5,061 nt of DNA from a virus. The DNA lies in IMG/VR virus record IMGVR_UViG_3300029539_000104, positions 1-5,061 of that record. The stretch is one strand, 5' to 3'. How positions within the stretch are numbered: the first letter of the stretch is position 1; each line of letters starts with the position of its first letter. A program made the position numbers and the translations under genes. The notes under the pieces are model-generated. The model was not told the origin of the DNA and made no database searches. It saw only the letters and a list, made by a program, of their open reading frames with translations. This document shows positions 1 through 5,061 of this stretch, one piece after another.

Positions 1-79
1 CTGAGTCTTCGCGCATTGCCGTTGAGGAGTTCCGAGAAGTTGCTGAAGACCCCTCTCCTTTTAGTGACGATGGGTTTGA
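1..79. repeat. Exact 79-nt terminal redundancy with 4983..5061. This is a circular-genome wrap-around or a tandem unit junction, with a unit length of 4,982 bp.
   Basis: Direct comparison of the two ends of the window shows that they are identical. Confidence 0.9.
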
Positions 80-98
80 TGATATATCTTTATTCTGA
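1..98 (+). CDS. C-terminal end of the Rep ORF. It is the continuation of 3944..5061 across the circular junction, with the stop codon TGA at 96-98.
   Basis: Positions 1-79 are identical to 4983-5061. The reading frame (codons starting at 3, 6, ...) continues the Rep frame and reaches TGA at 96-98. Confidence 0.7.
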   Translation, partial: ESSRIAVEEFREVAEDPSPFSDDGFDDISLF

Positions 99-116
99 TG
101 AAAGGATGGTCACTCA

Positions 117-359
117 ATGAAAGTTACTGTAGTTGGTAAGTCCCGCCGCGCTGGTACTTCTAAACAGGGTAAAGACTATGATTTTACCACTCTCATGGCC
201 GAATATTCGATGCGTGCAAACGATGACAATGACGGTGTGCAGGTTGATAGAATCAATGTCGACGCTCGCATGATGCCTTATGCGCTCATTGTCGTTGGCG
301 CTACGTATGATCTCGACTTTGATCGCAACGGTTATCTTCTCGGAATTGAGGAAGTCTAA
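117..359 (+). CDS. ssDNA-binding protein, filamentous-phage gene V (gpV)-like, 80 aa.
   Basis: Its size of 80 aa is close to the 87 aa of M13 gV. It has an N-terminal motif MKVTVV...AGTSKQGKDY, which resembles M13 gV MIKVEIK...SGVSRQGKPY (recalled, not searched). An AAAGGA Shine-Dalgarno (SD) lies 10 nt upstream. It sits immediately downstream of rep, as in Ff phages. Confidence 0.6.
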   Translation: MKVTVVGKSRRAGTSKQGKDYDFTTLMAEYSMRANDDNDGVQVDRINVDARMMPYALIVVGATYDLDFDRNGYLLGIEEV

Positions 360-395
360 CTTCCTTTGTTCAAACCCAAATTTCATTTCCTATGG

Positions 396-415
396 GAGAG
401 CGGTTCGCCGCTCTC
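396..415 (+). promoter_or_regulatory. Perfect 8-bp hairpin gagagcgg-UUCG-ccgctctc (UUCG tetraloop), 4 nt upstream of the tRNA-like gene.
   Basis: The arm 396-403 is the exact reverse complement of 408-415, and the loop ttcg is at 404-407. No T-run follows it. Confidence 0.6.
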
Positions 416-419
416 ACAT

Positions 420-493
420 GGCGGGGTAGTGCAATGGTCGCATGTCACTCTCTGAAGGTGAAGCTGCTGGTTCGAATCCAGACCCCGCAACCA
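420..493 (+). tRNA. tRNA-like gene with anticodon CUG (Gln), 74 nt including an encoded CCA.
   Basis: Manual cloverleaf, arm by arm:
- Acceptor stem: 420-426 pairs with 483-489, giving 6 bp plus a G1:A72 mismatch.
- U8 is present.
- D-stem: 429-432 pairs with 440-443.
- D-loop: AATGGTC, which contains G18 and G19.
- Anticodon stem: 445-449 pairs with 457-461.
- Anticodon loop: cuCUGaa, with U33 and a purine at position 37.
- Variable loop: 4 nt.
- T-arm: GCTGG-TTCGAAT-CCAGA, i.e. the canonical GGTTCGAATCC.
- Discriminator: A490.
- CCA: 491-493.
The 3' half resembles bacterial tRNA-Gln. Confidence 0.6.
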
Positions 494-494
494 A

Positions 495-513
495 AACGGA
501 CTTGACCTCCGTT
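495..513 (+). other. Small hairpin aacgga-cttgacc-tccgtt immediately 3' of the tRNA. It could be a weak terminator or a processing element.
   Basis: 6-bp perfect stem with 495-500 paired to 508-513 and a 7-nt loop. It is followed by the U-containing tract attcgatttcg. Confidence 0.35.
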
Positions 514-541
514 ATTCGATTTCGCGAAAGGTGGTGGCGAA

Positions 542-1708
542 GTGTATAAGGTTGCGAAGCGCTTCGTCGCCCTTCTCGCGGCTCTGATGGTTTCTCTTTC
601 TTTGTGTACTCCTTGTTTTGCTGGATTCGAAACTGAAGCTGATATGCCATCTTTGGATGATTTCTATAGTCATCATGGTTCGTGGTATGTTTGGCGTAGT
701 GCTACTATTTCTGGCTTCTCTTATTATGAGTTGCTTTGCTCTCCTATCTCTGTTTCTGGCACTTCTTATTCTCTTCCTTATTCGGTTTCTTATTCCACTA
801 ATGCGTGTGATGTATCTTATTTAGCTAATGATTCTGGCAAATCTTATGATTATGCTTGCGCTTTTCCTCTTCCTCTTCGTGGTGCTTCTGGTTATTGGTA
901 TGAACTTCCCTCTTTCCCTATTGGTTCGGGGCTGAAGCTTGATACATGCTCTGTACGTGTTTATTCTACCGCTGCTCAACCTTCTGGAACTTATGGCTTT
1001 TTAACTTCTTCTTTTAGCCGTTCAGACCGTATTCTTTCTTTCGGTAATACTTACGGTTCTTCTTATGGCTCTTCTACTGATACTTTAGATTCGTTTACTT
1101 TTTCATCTCCTTTTTATTCATATCCTTTTGCAATTCGTGAAACTACTTCTTCTTCTGCAAGTGGTTATGTTTTACAGGGTGGTGACAATAATTTTATTAT
1201 TCCTTCGCCTGACTATTCAAGTACCCGTGCTTTGAATCTTGGTGTTACTCGTTATCTCCGTGGCACTAATTCTTTTGTCCCTTATCCGTCTGGATACACT
1301 ATCCCATCTTCTGATATTGGCTTTGTCTTTGTGAAGCAACCTTCTTCTTCTCCTGTTTATTCTGCTTCTGCTTTTGATACTACCGGTTCTTTTGCTTTTT
1401 CTCTTCTTGTTCCCTCTTCTCGTTTGACTGATGTTAAGCTTGGTGACTGGCTTTCCGATTCTCCGGAGGATTTACAAGATGTCATTACTAACGAGTTTGG
1501 CGTTGATTCTGATACCATTAAAGACTCCAAAGATAACTTGAATTCTTGGAATTCTGCTTCCTCTGTCGATTCTGATATTGCTTCCGGTGCTTCTGGTCTT
1601 CTCGGCGGTCTTTTTCAGAATTTAGGCACGTTTCTCTTTTCTGTTTCTCTCCTTTGCTTCGGTGCTGTTGTTCTCCGAATGCTCATTAGAAAGGCGGTTG
1701 ACGGATGA
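542..1708 (+). CDS. pIII-like minor coat / adsorption (receptor-binding) protein, 388 aa, with a GTG start.
   Basis: - The N-terminus MYKVAKRFVALLAALMVSLSLCTPCFA-G is a signal peptide.
- The body is extremely rich in Ser/Tyr/Thr/Gly, of low complexity, and has Cys pairs.
- The C-terminus has a hydrophobic anchor LLGGLFQNLGTFLFSVSLLCFGAVVL followed by RMLIRK.
- An SD aaaggtgg lies upstream of GTG 542.
- This architecture and this position (first of the virion gene block) match pIII of inoviruses. Confidence 0.6.
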   Translation: MYKVAKRFVALLAALMVSLSLCTPCFAGFETEADMPSLDDFYSHHGSWYVWRSATISGFSYYELLCSPISVSGTSYSLPYSVSYSTNACDVSYLANDSGKSYDYACAFPLPLRGASGYWYELPSFPIGSGLKLDTCSVRVYSTAAQPSGTYGFLTSSFSRSDRILSFGNTYGSSYGSSTDTLDSFTFSSPFYSYPFAIRETTSSSASGYVLQGGDNNFIIPSPDYSSTRALNLGVTRYLRGTNSFVPYPSGYTIPSSDIGFVFVKQPSSSPVYSASAFDTTGSFAFSLLVPSSRLTDVKLGDWLSDSPEDLQDVITNEFGVDSDTIKDSKDNLNSWNSASSVDSDIASGASGLLGGLFQNLGTFLFSVSLLCFGAVVLRMLIRKAVDG

Positions 1709-1836
1709 CTTTTCTTGACTTTTTCAAATCAGTTTTCGGCCTTTTCGGTTCTGGTGGTGCTCTCGTCATTGCCGTTGTCGTTTTCCTTGTCGGCCTTGGT
1801 ATTTATAAGTTTGTAAAGGATTGGTTGCCATGGTAG
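1705..1836 (+). CDS. Small virion/membrane protein, 43 aa, a coat-protein candidate: MTFLDFFKSVFGLFGSGGALVIAVVVFLVGLGIYKFVKDWLPW.
   Basis: ATGA overlap with the pIII stop (ATG 1705-1707, TGA 1706-1708). An SD gaaagg lies 10 nt upstream. It has a single TM helix with a basic C-terminus, like signal-less inovirus coat proteins such as Pf3 (44 aa). Confidence 0.5.
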   Translation: MTFLDFFKSVFGLFGSGGALVIAVVVFLVGLGIYKFVKDWLPW

Positions 1837-1997
1837 ATTTTGTTTCGACTCTTGGTGTTGTGACATCGTTTATTGCTAATGTTCTTAACCTTTCTTTTTT
1901 CGGTTTCGGCACTTTTGGAACAGTTGTCCTTATCTTTCTTCTGCTTTCGCTTGTTGGTTTTGTTCTTCGTGGCCTTTGGGATGGAGGTGATAAATAA
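1830..1997 (+). CDS. Small two-TM membrane protein, 55 aa, a minor virion protein candidate analogous to pVI/pVII/pIX.
   Basis: ATG 1830 overlaps the stop TAG 1834-1836 of the previous ORF (ccATGGTAG). An SD aaagga lies 10 nt upstream. It has two hydrophobic segments. It ends in TAA 1995-1997, which shares one base with the next ATG. Confidence 0.45.
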   Translation: MVDFVSTLGVVTSFIANVLNLSFFGFGTFGTVVLIFLLLSLVGFVLRGLWDGGDK

Positions 1998-2608
1998 TGG
2001 AAGTTCCTGCTATCATCAAAACTTGGGTTGATTCTGACGGTGTTACTGTCTACACAGTGCAGTATAAAGACGGTAGTTCTTGCGATATGACTGTTCAGCA
2101 GTATGACTATCTCAAGGCATCCGCGCAGGCTGTCACCGATATGGACGCTAAAGCCGCCGCCGAATCTCCCTCGGATGCTGCTTCTGCTCCTGAGCAACCC
2201 GCGCAGAATATTACCGAATCTCCAGACCTCCGCGACGGCTATGTGCCTCATGAGGGTGATTTACCTTTCGAAGGGAGCTTAACTGCTTATGATGACCGCG
2301 CTGCAGATACTCCGGCTCTGTATGCTAATCTCCCTAACGTCTCTAATAGTTTCACTGCTATTATGGATTGGTTCGGAGATACTTTTTTTATCGAACGTAC
2401 TGAAACGGTGCATAAGTCCGGATATACGTCCGAAAGGTATTCCTATAACAGTTCGACTCAACTCATTCAGCTTCCTTATGAGGAAGATTCCACTACTACG
2501 TCTCAGGTTCTCAACCCGCAAGCTTGCGTTTCTGCTTTGCTTGTTGTCCTTGTCTTCATTACTACTGTTACTTGGATTAAAAACGCGATTTGGGGGCGCA
2601 TGAGCTGA
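1997..2608 (+). CDS. Hypothetical 203-aa protein with a C-terminal TM anchor and an Ala/Ser/Pro/Glu-rich linker. No family was recognised.
   Basis: A strong SD ggaggtga lies 6 nt upstream of ATG 1997. The protein has no signal peptide. Its C-terminus ALLVVLVFITTVTWIKNAIW is hydrophobic. The central segment (about 2140-2290) uses GC-ending codons, unlike the rest of the genome. Confidence 0.55.
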   Translation: MEVPAIIKTWVDSDGVTVYTVQYKDGSSCDMTVQQYDYLKASAQAVTDMDAKAAAESPSDAASAPEQPAQNITESPDLRDGYVPHEGDLPFEGSLTAYDDRAADTPALYANLPNVSNSFTAIMDWFGDTFFIERTETVHKSGYTSERYSYNSSTQLIQLPYEEDSTTTSQVLNPQACVSALLVVLVFITTVTWIKNAIWGRMS

Positions 2609-2721
2609 TGGAAATTCTTCCTTTACAGTATTGTTTCGGTATCTTCTCTATCCCCGAAATTGGCTATTTCATTATCTTCGCTGCTGTTTTCTCTATGTTG
2701 GTTCTCCTGCTCCGTCCGTGA
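2608..2721 (+). CDS. Small single-TM protein, 37 aa: MEILPLQYCFGIFSIPEIGYFIIFAAVFSMLVLLLRP.
   Basis: TGATG overlap with the previous stop (TGA 2606-2608, ATG 2608-2610). It is hydrophobic and of pVII/pIX-like size. Confidence 0.4.
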   Translation: MEILPLQYCFGIFSIPEIGYFIIFAAVFSMLVLLLRP

Positions 2722-2823
2722 CAGGTGCCATAAATATTTTTTATGAAAGGATGATGACTTCAGGGCACTACTGCTTCTATTCTCGCTACGCTGCTTTCCT
2801 TGGTCGGTGAGTTCTTCACTTCG

Positions 2824-2952
2824 ATGATTACTTGGATGGGTCAGCTCATTGACTTTTACGAGTCTCAGCCCATTCTCCTTGTCTTCGTGATTCTCACTAT
2901 CGCTGGCATCGTTCTCCGTGTCCTTCGCCGCTGGATTCCTGGCCGTAGTTAA
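2824..2952 (+). CDS. Candidate major coat protein (pVIII-like, class II, no signal peptide), 42 aa: MITWMGQLIDFYESQPILLVFVILTIAGIVLRVLRRWIPGRS.
   Basis: It has an acidic N-terminus (D, E), a hydrophobic core, and four Arg residues at the C-terminus, which is the typical major-coat charge layout. It is followed directly by the strongest terminator in the genome, as gVIII is in Ff. The start is uncertain: the SD is weak, and the frame is open upstream back to 2758 with no ATG. Confidence 0.45.
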   Translation: MITWMGQLIDFYESQPILLVFVILTIAGIVLRVLRRWIPGRS

Positions 2953-2966
2953 CCGCTGAGAGAAAA

Positions 2967-3008
2967 CGCCGCCGACCATTTTTAATGGTCGGCGACGTTT
3001 TCGCATTT
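2967..3008 (+). terminator. Rho-independent terminator after the virion-protein gene block.
   Basis: A GC-rich stem with 2967-2979 paired to 2985-2997 (10 contiguous bp, gccgccgaccat / atggtcggcgacg) and a 5-nt loop, followed by the T-rich tract TTTTCGCATTT. Confidence 0.65.
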
Positions 3009-3025
3009 AGAAAGGATTATATGTT

Positions 3026-3649
3026 ATGCTTTATGGTATTCTTATCTTTTGCATTTGCTGGCTTTTTGTTTATATCGATAACTATTGCAAAAACCCCTAC
3101 AAACTTGAGGCTGTTGTTGGTTCAAAAGGCTCTGGCAAGTCTCTGTATATGTCTCGTGTTGCTGATAAGTGGCTACGTGCTAATAAGGGGCTTATCTATA
3201 GTAATATGGGTATTGGTTACGAGTTAGAGCCGGAATACTGGAAACAGACCTTTATCCCTGATTCCCTTATTCTTATTGATGAAATAGGCGTTCTGCACTC
3301 TAATCGTGATTTTAAAACTATGCCCCGTGAAGCTGTTGAGTTTTTTAAAATGCAGCGTAAATATCATTTGACAATTATTGTATCGTCTCAGACCATGGAC
3401 TTTGATAAAAAGATACGTGACCTCTGTGACCGCATTTACCTCTGTAACCGCATTGGCTGGTTTTGTCGTCTCACTCCCTATCGCTCTTGTATCGCTATGG
3501 AACATCGCCCCGAGGGAGGGCAAGAACTCGTCAACACGGTGCGCAAGGCGGGGCGTGCAAGGTGGTATACTATCCCAAAGTCCGTGAAGCAGGTGAGCGC
3601 CTTAGAATACGATACAGAGCAGGTTATCAGCAAGACCACCCCGAAGTAA
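3026..3649 (+). CDS. Zot / pI-type phage assembly ATPase (P-loop NTPase), a minimal form of 207 aa.
   Basis: - Walker A: EAVVGSKGSGKS.
- Walker B: SLILIDE.
- The layout parallels M13 pI VYFVTGKLGSGKT...LLVLDE (recalled).
- It has an N-terminal hydrophobic segment ILIFCICWLFVYI.
- An SD aaagga lies 9 nt upstream.
- It has no long periplasmic C-terminal domain. Confidence 0.7.
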   Translation: MLYGILIFCICWLFVYIDNYCKNPYKLEAVVGSKGSGKSLYMSRVADKWLRANKGLIYSNMGIGYELEPEYWKQTFIPDSLILIDEIGVLHSNRDFKTMPREAVEFFKMQRKYHLTIIVSSQTMDFDKKIRDLCDRIYLCNRIGWFCRLTPYRSCIAMEHRPEGGQELVNTVRKAGRARWYTIPKSVKQVSALEYDTEQVISKTTPK

Positions 3650-3700
3650 AAAAAAGTTCTCCCCGTGCCCCCGTAGGGGGTCAGGGGAGTTCTTTTTTTT
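3648..3700. terminator. Long compound hairpin with an A8 tract 5' and a T8 tract 3'. It is a bidirectional rho-independent terminator immediately after pI, and a candidate packaging-signal hairpin.
   Basis: Outer stem ctcccc 3659-3664 paired to ggggag 3684-3689. Inner stem ccccc 3668-3672 paired to ggggg 3676-3680, with a gta loop. A8 (3648-3655) pairs with T8 (3693-3700). In f1/M13 the packaging signal is a terminator-like hairpin just after the last gene. Confidence 0.6.
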
Positions 3701-3759
3701 ACCGGAGCATTCCCGCCGTCTTGTCACGCGATAGCGTCTCCACCGCGTCCCCCGTCCCC

Positions 3760-3778
3760 GCAAGGGCAAAGCCCTTGC
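3760..3778. other. Intergenic hairpin gcaagggc-aaa-gcccttgc, a candidate minus-strand origin element.
   Basis: 8-bp perfect stem with 3760-3767 paired to 3771-3778 and a triloop. It lies in the GC-rich intergenic region. Confidence 0.4.
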
Positions 3779-3819
3779 CCTTCCAAAACAGGCTGGCAGG
3801 GGCTTCCGATATGTAGTGA

Positions 3820-3837
3820 CTGCCGTGACGGCGGCAG
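3820..3837. other. Intergenic hairpin ctgccg-tgacgg-cggcag.
   Basis: 6-bp perfect stem with a 6-nt loop. Confidence 0.4.
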
Positions 3838-3839
3838 CC

Positions 3840-3880
3840 GGTGGGCGTGCGTGTAATACGCCCACCTTTTTAATATTTTC
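3840..3880 (+). other. Hairpin ggtgggcgt-GCGTGTAAT-acgcccacc followed by TTTTTAATATTTTC. It is a terminator-like element and a candidate plus-strand origin (dso) nick region for the Rep_trans Rep.
   Basis: 9-bp perfect stem with 3840-3848 paired to 3858-3866. The loop contains GTGTAATA. pT181 RepC nicks in the loop of its IR-II hairpin at CTCT/AATA (recalled). A T-run follows the stem. Confidence 0.4.
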
Positions 3881-3882
3881 TC

Positions 3883-3911
3883 TTGACAACTTCTTCATAT
3901 TGTGGTAACAT
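3883..3911 (+). promoter_or_regulatory. sigma70-type promoter for rep: -35 TTGACA, a 17-nt spacer, and an extended -10 TGgTAACAT.
   Basis: TTGACA at 3883-3888. TG at 3902-3903. TAACAT at 3906-3911. The predicted TSS is about 3918-3920. An SD aaaggtgg at 3927-3934 precedes ATG 3944. Confidence 0.6.
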
Positions 3912-3917
3912 TTAGCC

Positions 3918-3947
3918 ATGGAAATGAAAGGTGGTTTTCTCACATGA
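3918..3947 (+). CDS. Nine-codon uORF (MEMKGGFLT) whose stop overlaps the rep start (ATGA).
   Basis: ATG 3918. TGA 3945-3947, which overlaps rep ATG 3944-3946. It contains the rep SD. It could be a leader or coupling ORF, or meaningless. Confidence 0.2.
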   Translation: MEMKGGFLT

Positions 3948-5061
3948 AAATGGTTGTTAAACTTGACTATGCTACGTTTGCTTTTGAGCAGGGTTCAATT
4001 TCTATTCCCAAAATCGAAGATGCTCTTTCTCAGTGTGATTTGCATTTTGCGCAGACTTCCAACGCAAGTGAGAATTCCCCTTACAATTCCCCTGCGGGAC
4101 TATTCTTTAAGCCGAATAACGGCGCCGAACAGTCTCCGCACTCTTTACAAGTTTCTGGTCATGGTTGTGAGCTTTTCCGTCCCACATTGCCGCGTCTTGC
4201 GTCACTGATGCAGGAAGGTCACGAATTCGGTCACTTTTCTCGTCTCGACTTTTGTTTTGATGTTGTGATGACCAAAGAACGCTGGCGTCAATATTATCTT
4301 GGTGTTATCTCTGCTTCTGTCGATGAGATGAATCATCCCGAAAAAGCCCGTAAGGTTCGCAAGTTCATGTATCAGGGTTATGGGGATGAGACTACTATTT
4401 ATATCGGTCGAAGAACGTCTTCATATGCTTTCTGCCGTATCTATAATAAATCCCTGCAAGACCCTGATAAAAAGCTCTGTACGGCTTCTGGTGCGCTTCT
4501 GGACTGTCCCGATGATTCCTATATCATTCGTTATGAGATTGAGTTTAAATTTACTTCTCGTGTACGTTCCGGTTCTCGTTCCGTTTATGACCCGTCTCCG
4601 CTTTTCTGGTTTTATTATGAAGACCCTGACAAGCTCTTCGCCTATCTCCGTAAAGTCTGGAATCGTTACGGGAATGATACTATTCTTCCTGATGGCTGGG
4701 AAGATATGCAGTTCGTGACTGATATTGAAGCCCGCAATATTCAGTTTGTTAAGGACTTATTGCATCCCCTTAGTGATGACCTTGCACAAAAGTTTTCCGT
4801 ATCTATCCATACCGTAGAACAGAAAATGTCTTATGTCGCTAATATCTTTGGACACCGTATCATCGATATTCTGCTTTATCGTCCTGAGCTGCTTTTCTTC
4901 GCTTGTTGTAAGTGGGAGCAGTATTATAATGAGCGTCTTCCGTTCTCTCCTCTTGCGTTGACACAGGAAGTTGCACAATTTTCTGAGTCTTCGCGCATTG
5001 CCGTTGAGGAGTTCCGAGAAGTTGCTGAAGACCCCTCTCCTTTTAGTGACGATGGGTTTGA
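3944..5061 (+). CDS. Rolling-circle replication initiator, Rep_trans family (pT181 RepC / CTXphi RstA type). It runs off the window end and continues at 1..98, for about 378 aa in total.
   Basis: - The ORF is open in frame 2 from ATG 3944 to the window end.
- Motifs match recalled pT181 RepC: GHFSRLDFCFDV against GFTRLDLAFDFE (4241-4264).
- YAFCRIYNKS against RFIRIYNKKQ. The Tyr at 4442-4444 corresponds to the catalytic Tyr191 of RepC.
- IRYEIEFK against WRVEIELK.
- The promoter and SD described above lie upstream. Confidence 0.8.
   Translation, partial: MKMVVKLDYATFAFEQGSISIPKIEDALSQCDLHFAQTSNASENSPYNSPAGLFFKPNNGAEQSPHSLQVSGHGCELFRPTLPRLASLMQEGHEFGHFSRLDFCFDVVMTKERWRQYYLGVISASVDEMNHPEKARKVRKFMYQGYGDETTIYIGRRTSSYAFCRIYNKSLQDPDKKLCTASGALLDCPDDSYIIRYEIEFKFTSRVRSGSRSVYDPSPLFWFYYEDPDKLFAYLRKVWNRYGNDTILPDGWEDMQFVTDIEARNIQFVKDLLHPLSDDLAQKFSVSIHTVEQKMSYVANIFGHRIIDILLYRPELLFFACCKWEQYYNERLPFSPLALTQEVAQFSESSRIAVEEFREVAEDPSPFSDDGF
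4983..5061. repeat. Second copy of the 79-nt terminal redundancy (identical to 1..79).
   Basis: Exact identity to the first 79 nt of the window. Confidence 0.9.

Follow-up and report, generated by a model that had tools for sequence, protein, structure and literature searches.

The window examined in this work, a 5,061-nucleotide (nt) stretch of viral DNA (IMG/VR record IMGVR_UViG_3300029539_000104, positions 1 to 5,061), is the genome of an inovirus and contains, at 420-493, a gene for a glutamine transfer RNA (tRNA-Gln) with the anticodon CUG. The gene is real, and its most likely function is a new one: with a probability of about three in four, it would supply the phage with an initiator-type tRNA-Gln that decodes CAG as the start codon of a gene for a coat-like protein, situated 2.3 kb away. 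Going by the comparisons of sequences presented below, it also seems likely that inoviruses of gut Clostridia carry a natural orthogonal initiation system, formed by a non-methionine initiator tRNA and a reassigned CAG start (CAA where the anticodon is UUG); in this system the reassigned start would be on the coat gene and, in one lineage, on the adsorption gene too. The elements on which the proposal depends are the following:

420..493, + strand: tRNA-Gln gene, anticodon CUG at 452-454 (single ARAGORN call; Rfam RF00005)
2745..2760, + strand: ribosome-binding motif GAAAGG (2745-2750) with its 10-nt spacer ATGATGACTT
2761..2763, + strand: CAG, proposed start codon, complementary to the anticodon CUG; present in 42/42 aligned relatives and also in L118-L122
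2761..2952, + strand: open reading frame (ORF) of 63 codons plus stop, missed by standard annotation (coding signature, homology, AlphaFold2 model)
2962..3002, + strand: strong hairpin after the coat-like ORF, with 19-nt arms 95% complementary, kept in all relatives

The tRNA gene

In addition to the ARAGORN call, RF00005 matches 420-493 over the full model (1-71) with 46.2 bits, the gathering score being 29 (E = 9e-8), and the tRNAs of the relatives score 48-60 bits. The initial annotation, made from the sequence alone, had read a complete tRNA-Gln (CUG) on the + strand at this position and had suggested a search with this model, and both programs agree with it. The molecule is 74 nt long, with a D-loop of 7 nt in which G18 and G19 are present, a variable loop of 4 nt, the T-arm GGTTCGAATCC, the anticodon loop CUCUGAA (C32 U33, CUG, A37 A38) and a CCA encoded at 491-493, and it has two mismatches, G1·A72 and G49·A65. 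The particulars listed beforehand, that is, the GG of the D-loop, the T-arm, U33, a purine at 37, the encoded CCA and the mismatches at 1:72 and 49:65, are all found in the sequence.

The same tRNA occupies the same place, upstream of a large signal-peptide gene, in four GenBank pig inoviruses (~82% identical to the window), and two distant GenBank pig inoviruses also carry a tRNA upstream of such a gene. It is present in 33 of the 37 relatives from IMG/VR, the other four being partial contigs that do not cover the region, and in further metagenome contigs beyond these two sets. Every related inovirus contig of this group that covers the region keeps the tRNA, and other related inoviruses are without the element altogether.

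Compensatory evidence comes from 30 distinct sequences, in which both sides have changed in 10 of the 21 stem pairs and 91.3% of the cells are paired; none of 500 shuffles reaches this covariation, and slid controls give 32-53%. The anticodon stem covaries in all five of its pairs; this settles its register, and with it the anticodon CUG, as against the alternative register that had previously been contemplated. The minimum free energy of the single sequence is unremarkable (z = -0.62), so that the case for the tRNA is comparative and not thermodynamic. On these grounds, 420-493 is confirmed as a real tRNA gene under selection. At position 37, 30 of the 32 distinct sequences have A, and C37 is found in L005/L006 and L101 (loops CUCUGCA and UUCUGCA).

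A second type of tRNA (type B), only ~65% identical to that of the window, is found in L009 (793-866), L014, L020, L022, L023, L032, L121 and L122, and keeps G1·A72, G2:C71, C3:G70, A73 and CUG. The six from L009 to L032 are close relatives of the window, with Zot proteins that are 96-99% identical, and an Oscillospiraceae host tRNA-Gln has exactly the D-arm of type B. The pattern in the sequences suggests that in the type-B genomes the tRNA module was swapped under the same functional constraint. Furthermore, L118-L120 share the structural module, the tRNA and the CAG start, but have Rep_OBD instead of Rep_trans; the genomes of these inoviruses are thus mosaics, in which the tRNA moves together with the structural genes.

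A coat-like gene with a putative CAG start

The ORF at 2761-2952 occupies the space between a 37-amino-acid (aa) ORF, which ends at 2721, and the hairpin at 2962-3002, and its longest version with a canonical start, from TTG 2800, has 50 aa. Public gene calls give versions of 38, 42, 50, 57 and 69 aa, and the GenBank relatives leave the ORF without annotation. Four GenBank entries, L001-L004 (MT135292/293/305/296), name their genes in the style of microviruses ('protein A/C/F/H') and have no annotation for either the tRNA or the coat gene.

The motif GAAAGG is found eight times on the + strand: five copies precede the canonical starts at 117, 542, 1705, 3026 and 3944 by 10-12 nt, and one precedes CAG 2761 by 10 nt. 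A further combination at 2432-2451 (GAAAGG, 11 nt, CAG) was put down to chance, as it falls within a 203-aa ORF, in a different frame from it, and the frame that it opens has no more than 10 codons. The spacer of the coat-like gene (2751-2760) is almost invariant and contains two ATGs out of frame and two TGAs in frame, the latter consecutive at 2752-2757 and followed by CTT and then by CAG. Mean diversity is 0.029 over 2745-2763, as against 0.156 just upstream; the conservation of the spacer might reflect an extended pairing with 16S rRNA or a block on upstream starts.

From the CAG onwards the sequence has a coding signature. In the 20 codons that precede the first ATG (2824), diversity at the three codon positions is 0.10, 0.07 and 0.32, with the same third-position excess as in the rest of the gene; the peptide specified there, SILATLLSLVGEFFTS, is conserved; and in the alignment of 42 relatives all the indels directly after the CAG are of 3 or 6 nt. 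These 20 conserved codons upstream led to the rejection of ATG 2824 as the start, and TTG 2800 was rejected too, having no ribosome-binding site and the conserved peptide before it, and being CAG in 11 of the 42 relatives. A start at ATG 2751 or 2754 followed by a +1 frameshift was likewise discarded: both ATGs belong to another reading frame and follow GAAAGG at a mere 0-3 nt, and the frameshift site would be neither slippery nor constant (ACT TCA / CTT TCA / TTT TCA / ACA TCA), with other sequences in L005 and L118-L120.

For the 63-aa product the prediction is a single long helix; its core is hydrophobic and its C-terminus, RVLRRWIPGRS, is basic, and the AlphaFold2 model (predicted local distance difference test, pLDDT, of 87) places helices at 4-35 and 37-58. 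It is homologous to proteins of 62-64 aa that start with ATG in relatives without the tRNA. The major coat proteins of inoviruses are likewise small and helical, hydrophobic in the core and basic at the C-terminus, and their genes stand before a terminator; here, the hairpin at 2962-3002 is probably a transcription terminator. The protein has no match in Pfam, PHROGs, a PDB profile search or Foldseek, and its ORF is the only one of the window without a PHROG family; since family and fold are silent, we infer from the predicted structure and gene position that the product would be the major coat protein.

Association between the tRNA and the codon at the putative start

The relatives can be ordered by the presence of the tRNA, by its anticodon and by the codon at the aligned start of the coat-like gene:

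No tRNA: ATG at the aligned start, with the same motif before it (L113, L115, L116, L117, L130, L131; names Bajarodino virus 60, Dulem virus 75)
No tRNA: GTG at the aligned start, with the same motif before it (L114; name Bajarodino virus 79)
tRNA with CUG: CAG (the clade of the window with both tRNA types, including L118-L120 with the other Rep module)
tRNA with CUG: CAG on the first of two coat paralogues, ATG on the second (L005/L006)
tRNA with CUG: CAG after GAAAGGAG and 8 nt (the Oscillospiraceae prophage L101 and its relatives L123-L125)
tRNA with UUG: CAA on the coat gene after GAAAGGAAG and 9 nt (L103, a sister prophage of L101)

Among about four independent lineages that bear the tRNA and five that lack it, no exception was found to the link between the tRNA and CAG or CAA (CAR) at the aligned start, or between its absence and ATG or GTG. 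The sequences point to a small but clean association of the tRNA with CAR at this position, in which the anticodon matches the codon. In L005 the CAG of the first paralogue is preceded by GAAAGG and 10 nt, as in the window. Two contigs, L127 and L128, have TTG-CAG after the ribosome-binding site and do not cover the tRNA region, and were left as ambiguous. Tandem coat paralogues are a trait of the distant pig inoviruses MT135307 and MT135309, those of L005 being at 4307-4505 and 4521-4685.

L103 contains a second CAA, 8 nt after GGAGG and before a textbook signal peptide, where L101 has TTG. The gene in question is of the adsorption type (L103, minus strand, 4517-4400; L109, 3144-3260), reads GGAGG, 8 nt, CAA AAA TTT AAA CGC..., and from its sequence this large signal-peptide gene of L103/L109 appears to start at CAA.

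Related phages are integrated at different loci in contigs of Oscillospiraceae metagenome-assembled genomes (L101, L103, L109, L123, L124, L130 and L131), from which it follows that the Oscillospiraceae are the hosts of this branch; several of these phages have a gene for an rve-family integrase beyond zot.

Initiator and elongator features of the tRNA

The pair 1:72 is unpaired in all 30 aligned variants, with G or C (G in most copies) opposite an invariant A72, and it is also unpaired in the type-B and L118-L122 copies, so that no paired phage copy exists among those examined; L005/L006 has C1·A72. G2:C71, C3:G70 and A73 are invariant in the 32 distinct sequences. In contrast, 9 of the 30 aligned variants have a pair, U-A or G-C, in place of the mismatch at 49:65. 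A mismatch at 1:72 together with the pairs 2:71 and 3:70 is the mark of bacterial initiator tRNAs and the major determinant for the formylase (PMC5389676). The acceptor strands (C/G)GCGGGG...CCCCGCA-A-CCA are those of the formylmethionine initiator tRNA (tRNAfMet) of Escherichia coli, from which the window differs at base 1; the reference was the 77-nt E. coli sequence, confirmed at 100% identity and with ~4 copies per genome. The suspicion that G1:A72 was odd was therefore well placed, while the idea derived from it, that of a tRNA mimic without function, finds no support, and the conserved mismatch appears instead to be a functional clue to an acceptor end of the initiator type.

The remainder of the molecule is closer to a glutamine tRNA. 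The anticodon is YUG, with U35, G36 and A37, as in the glutamine identity set (PMC9976931), and in this it departs from the CAU and methionine identity of initiators, being CUG, or UUG in L103/L109. In the contig L109 the phage of L103 adjoins a cluster of host tRNA genes that includes a tRNA-Gln(UUG), and the two molecules can be compared directly: the D-arm (nearly identical in L103) and the anticodon loop are common to both, the phage tRNA has the initiator-type acceptor end and A73 for G73, and its anticodon stem is UCGGG/CCCGA where the host has UCAGA/UCUGA, which creates the three G:C pairs of initiators. To judge from these alignments, the phage tRNA looks like a glutamine tRNA body to which initiator features have been given.

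As a separate observation, four large and unrelated phage contigs of IMG/VR, L058 (6865-6939), L066, L073 and L087, carry a tRNA-Met(CAU) with an initiator-like CGCGGGG acceptor stem; 1:72 is mismatched in that of L058, the others showing different combinations of bases 1 and 72, and the short D-arm GTGC AACGG-A GCAC is common to this group and to the inovirus tRNA, whose 5' half, D-arm included, is met again in phage tRNA-Met(CAU) genes with 1:72 mismatched. L105, L112 and most of the 17-mer matches in large IMG/VR contigs were discarded as chance or unrelated tRNA-Met genes.

Several observations weigh against an initiator function. The three G:C pairs 29:41, 30:40 and 31:39 of initiators are not those of the window, which has A29-U41, C30-G40 and U31·G39; of the 32 distinct sequences, 24 have C-G at 30:40, 6 have G-C and 2 have other combinations (U·U, U·G). 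Type B shows two of the pairs, G30:C40 and G31:C39, and the full set of three is found only in the L103/L109 variant. The pair 11:24 is U:A, which is the elongator type. An E. coli initiator of the mid-CG kind enters 70S complexes and yet cannot sustain growth (PMC5389676). The cellular tRNA-Gln(CUG) of L100, a contig assigned to the Candidate Phyla Radiation (CPR), has the same acceptor sequence with a paired U1:A72, and so the acceptor sequence alone is no proof of descent from tRNAfMet; as a cellular contig with no phage genes, L100 was rejected as a phage copy with U1:A72. The amino acid attached is uncertain as well, because the phage tRNA matches only in part the identity set of the E. 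coli glutaminyl-tRNA synthetase (GlnRS), composed of G73, U1-A72, G3-C70 and U38, and amidotransferases also use U1-A72 (PMC9976931), this pair being an identity element for GlnRS, GluRS2 and amidotransferases alike (PMC9976931). Among the tRNAs compared, none but the cellular ones (that of L100 and that of the host in L109) have U1:A72, and the phage copies have A73 and C3:G70 in place of G73 and G3:C70; the CPR tRNA-Gln of L100 has A73 and C3:G70 too, which indicates that this part of the E. coli set is not universal. As to the outlying lineages, the tRNA of L005/L006 is found by ARAGORN and falls below the gathering threshold of Rfam, in L005 and before the g3p-like gene of L103 a GTG in frame falls within the ribosome-binding site, and the phages of the L101 type have an in-frame ATG upstream of the CAG, overlapping the stop of the previous gene; because of these upstream codons, the cases of L101, L005 and the g3p-like gene of L103 are ambiguous when taken alone.

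Genome organization

The window represents a circular genome of 4982 nt, positions 1-79 being identical to 4983-5061, in which every ORF is on the + strand. It encodes a Zot-like ATPase, a Rep of the Rep_trans type and a small RstB-like protein, in accordance with the filamentous-phage genome of about 5 kb that had been recognized before, and it encodes no integrase. Besides the elements already listed, it contains:

3944 wrapping to 98, + strand: Rep of the Rep_trans type (profile and ORF evidence)
117..359, + strand: RstB-like protein of the single-stranded DNA (ssDNA)-binding type, 80 aa, upstream of the tRNA (phrog_929, E = 6.5e-4)
396..415, + strand: perfect 8-base-pair hairpin, loop TTCG, its end 4 nt away from the 5' end of the tRNA
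495..513, + strand: terminator-like hairpin, 1 nt after the CCA, in the 5' leader of the g3p-like gene (terminator scan)
542..1708, + strand: signal-peptide protein of 388 aa in the position of the adsorption (g3p) gene, directly 3' of the tRNA in every case
Between 1705 and 2721, + strand: several small membrane proteins (ORF list)
3026-3649, + strand: Zot-like ATPase (profile matches)
3646-3870, + strand: cluster of G+C-rich hairpins between zot and rep; that at 3646-3702 has 27-nt arms and that at 3840-3866 is terminator-like
3883..3911, + strand: sigma-70-like promoter upstream of rep, the best of the genome (TTGACA, 17 nt, TG-n-TAACAT; 10/12 matches, with the TG extension)

Homologues of the 80-aa gene are annotated as RstB-like in bajarodino viruses, and the tRNA is directly 5' of the g3p-like gene also in L005, L101 and L103. 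The promoter, which comes after the hairpin cluster, is probably the source of a rep-ssb-tRNA transcript, and the cluster itself is likely to be the origin or the packaging region. Both of the hairpins that had been described at the sides of the tRNA exist. That at 396-415 is likely to be a 3' stabilizer or processing element of the upstream rep-ssb message and stands outside the core of the tRNA module: a hairpin of other sequence is at the equivalent place in MT135292/293/296/305 and L101, and L118-L120, whose replication module differs from that of the window, have no hairpin upstream of the tRNA. The hairpin at 495-513 is kept along with the tRNA in L106, L107, L111 and L118-L122. An inverted repeat between the T-arm of the tRNA (462-481) and the start of the g3p-like gene (621-640; 20 nt, 85% complementary) is probably due to chance, with 5-14 matches out of 20 in the relatives.

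Proposed mechanism

According to the mechanism proposed here, the tRNA would be part of the early transcript of the rep-ssb genes, begun at the promoter at ~3883-3911, and would be cut out of it by ribonuclease P (RNase P) and 3' processing, the CCA being already encoded. A host enzyme would charge it, most likely with glutamine, either GlnRS or the glutamyl-tRNA synthetase (GluRS) followed by an amidotransferase, and the host formyltransferase would then formylate the charged molecule, a step proposed on account of the unpaired 1:72 accompanied by G2:C71, C3:G70 and A73. Delivered to the P site of the ribosome, its anticodon CUG would pair with the CAG at 2761-2763, and the translation of the 63-residue coat-like protein would begin at this codon, which is proposed because the CAG is at the normal 10-nt distance from the standard GAAAGG site of the phage. 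In other words, the synthesis of the coat would depend on the phage's own tRNA, and the protein would start with (formyl-)Gln and not with Met. An engineered precedent exists for this chemistry: once the E. coli initiator tRNA is given the anticodon CUA, GlnRS charges it, it becomes formylated and it starts translation at UAG (PMC2268962). The literature searched contained no natural case of a tRNA that starts a gene at CAG, no natural initiator tRNA that is phage-encoded or other than methionine and no link between tRNA-Gln and inoviruses; the counterparts found were all engineered.

Alternative explanations

If the tRNA were an ordinary elongator that supplements the decoding of CAG, as the initial annotation had suggested, the coat-like ORF would have to start by some other means. 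The conserved anticodon CUG and anticodon loop speak for an elongator, the ORFs of the window use CAG 30 times and CAA 12 times, the cellular tRNA-Gln of L100 has a nearly identical acceptor sequence, and phage-encoded elongator tRNAs are common (PMC10264068). However, 1:72 has remained unpaired in every phage copy, when a single change of G to U or of C to U would pair it and 49:65 has often been mended; the anticodon is CUG in one and UUG in the other of two sister prophages whose ratios of CAG to CAA are nearly equal (31:25 and 28:22), and the relatives without the tRNA are equally rich in CAG. An elongator also leaves without explanation a coat-like ORF that is devoid of a canonical start solely in the genomes that bear the tRNA, and we regard it as unlikely. 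The tRNA fold could also be a signal for RNA processing or stability, by which RNase P would separate the rep-ssb message, ending in the hairpin 396-415, from the message of the structural genes, with decoding being irrelevant. Its position between the two halves of the operon, always directly upstream of the g3p-like gene, with a stable hairpin 4 nt before it and a terminator-like one 1 nt after it, would suit such a role; but processing has no need of a conserved anticodon, of an invariant signature at the acceptor end or of a match to a codon 2.3 kb away, and the upstream hairpin is dispensable in L118-L120. As the whole explanation it is improbable, and as an additional role it may well coexist with that of initiator.

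The two remaining possibilities, also raised beforehand, treat the element as DNA. Many temperate elements integrate into tRNA genes, and the related prophage L109 adjoins a host tRNA cluster with a tRNA-Gln, so that a phage attachment site (attP), or the remnant of an integration into a host tRNA-Gln gene, comes to mind. Nevertheless, the gene is full length and under structural selection, with compensatory changes, and within the prophages L101, L103 and L109 a distance of 1.2-1.4 kb separates it from the left junction. One and the same phage is integrated, besides, at two distinct loci of the host, and the window encodes no integrase; the comparison with the host gene, which had been recommended to detect such an identity, gives differences throughout the acceptor stem and the T-arm, and we consider this origin the most improbable of all. 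A cloverleaf in the packaged ssDNA, acting as the minus-strand origin or priming site, is hardly more credible. Positions 380-530 do fold well as DNA (z = -4.1), on the strand that was deduced earlier to be the packaged one, but the low energy is largely due to the flanking hairpins, and a DNA structure accounts neither for the conservation of the tRNA-specific loop nucleotides, the CCA and the anticodon, nor for an anticodon that covaries with a distant start codon; moreover, related inoviruses exist without the element, and a separate cluster of G+C-rich hairpins is available at 3646-3870, in an intergenic region, as is typical of inoviruses. Thus, an initiator-type tRNA-Gln is the reading that best brings together the acceptor end, the anticodon and the start codon.

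Significance and relation to known systems

Initiation with Met-tRNAi (formylmethionine in bacteria) is treated as universal, and the only known exceptions to it are engineered tRNAs, internal ribosome entry sites (IRES) and leaky initiation at near-cognate codons. If the proposal is true, this would be the first natural initiator tRNA other than tRNA-Met, and a new control of viral gene expression, exerted by a dedicated initiator tRNA for a glutamine codon in a virus of 5 kb: the synthesis of virion proteins would be gated by the phage's own early-transcribed tRNA, and the coat protein would begin with Gln, which could cyclize to pyroglutamate. In practical terms, standard gene callers miss or shorten the coat gene in this abundant group of gut phages, and the start-codon tables for viral metagenomes would need a tRNA-aware exception. 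The system would also be the natural counterpart of the synthetic 'amber initiator' used in biocontainment.

The engineered amber initiator is the E. coli tRNAfMet with the anticodon CUA (PMC2268962, bioRxiv 10.1101/2024.07.29.605542), other non-AUG initiators have been engineered (PMC11744186), and an engineered initiator tRNA has previously been used to make phage genes dependent on a special tRNA. The phage tRNA resembles it in combining an acceptor end of the initiator type with an anticodon other than CAU, and the amber initiator is charged by GlnRS, formylated, and starts at the complementary non-AUG codon, steps that are only proposed for the phage tRNA. The amber initiator, nonetheless, is man-made, derives from tRNAfMet, reads the stop codon UAG and keeps the three G:C pairs, while the phage tRNA is natural, would read the sense codons CAG/CAA, has the D-arm and anticodon loop of a tRNA-Gln and, in the window, is without the three pairs.

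With respect to cellular tRNAs, the phage molecule shares with bacterial tRNAfMet the unpaired 1:72, G2:C71, C3:G70 and A73, and in L103/L109 also the stem UCGGG/CCCGA; it differs in the anticodon CUG/UUG, in that the three G:C pairs are not conserved, in 11:24 being U:A, in the 7-nt D-loop and in being encoded by a phage of 5 kb. With the elongator tRNA-Gln of the Oscillospiraceae host in L109 and of the CPR contig L100 it has in common the anticodon, much of the anticodon loop, the D-arm, the length of 74 nt and the 4-nt variable loop; unlike them, it never pairs 1:72, the cellular copies having U1:A72 and the host copy, in addition, G3:C70 and G73.

Among viruses, crAss-like and Lak phages have suppressor tRNAs that accompany the recoding of stop codons in late genes, and the likeness lies in a phage tRNA that is needed for structural or late genes which the host reads differently. 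Those tRNAs act in elongation, at internal stops, whereas here it would be the start codon and an initiator-type tRNA. The intergenic IRES of dicistroviruses provides for a start independent of methionine, the first codon of the capsid ORF being one for Gln or Ala, and in both cases a viral capsid gene would open with a sense codon that is not that of Met. The dicistrovirus system, however, is eukaryotic and driven by RNA structure, it dispenses with an initiator tRNA and receives the first aminoacyl-tRNA in the A site, while in the inoviruses considered here the start would rely on a Shine-Dalgarno site and a dedicated tRNA.

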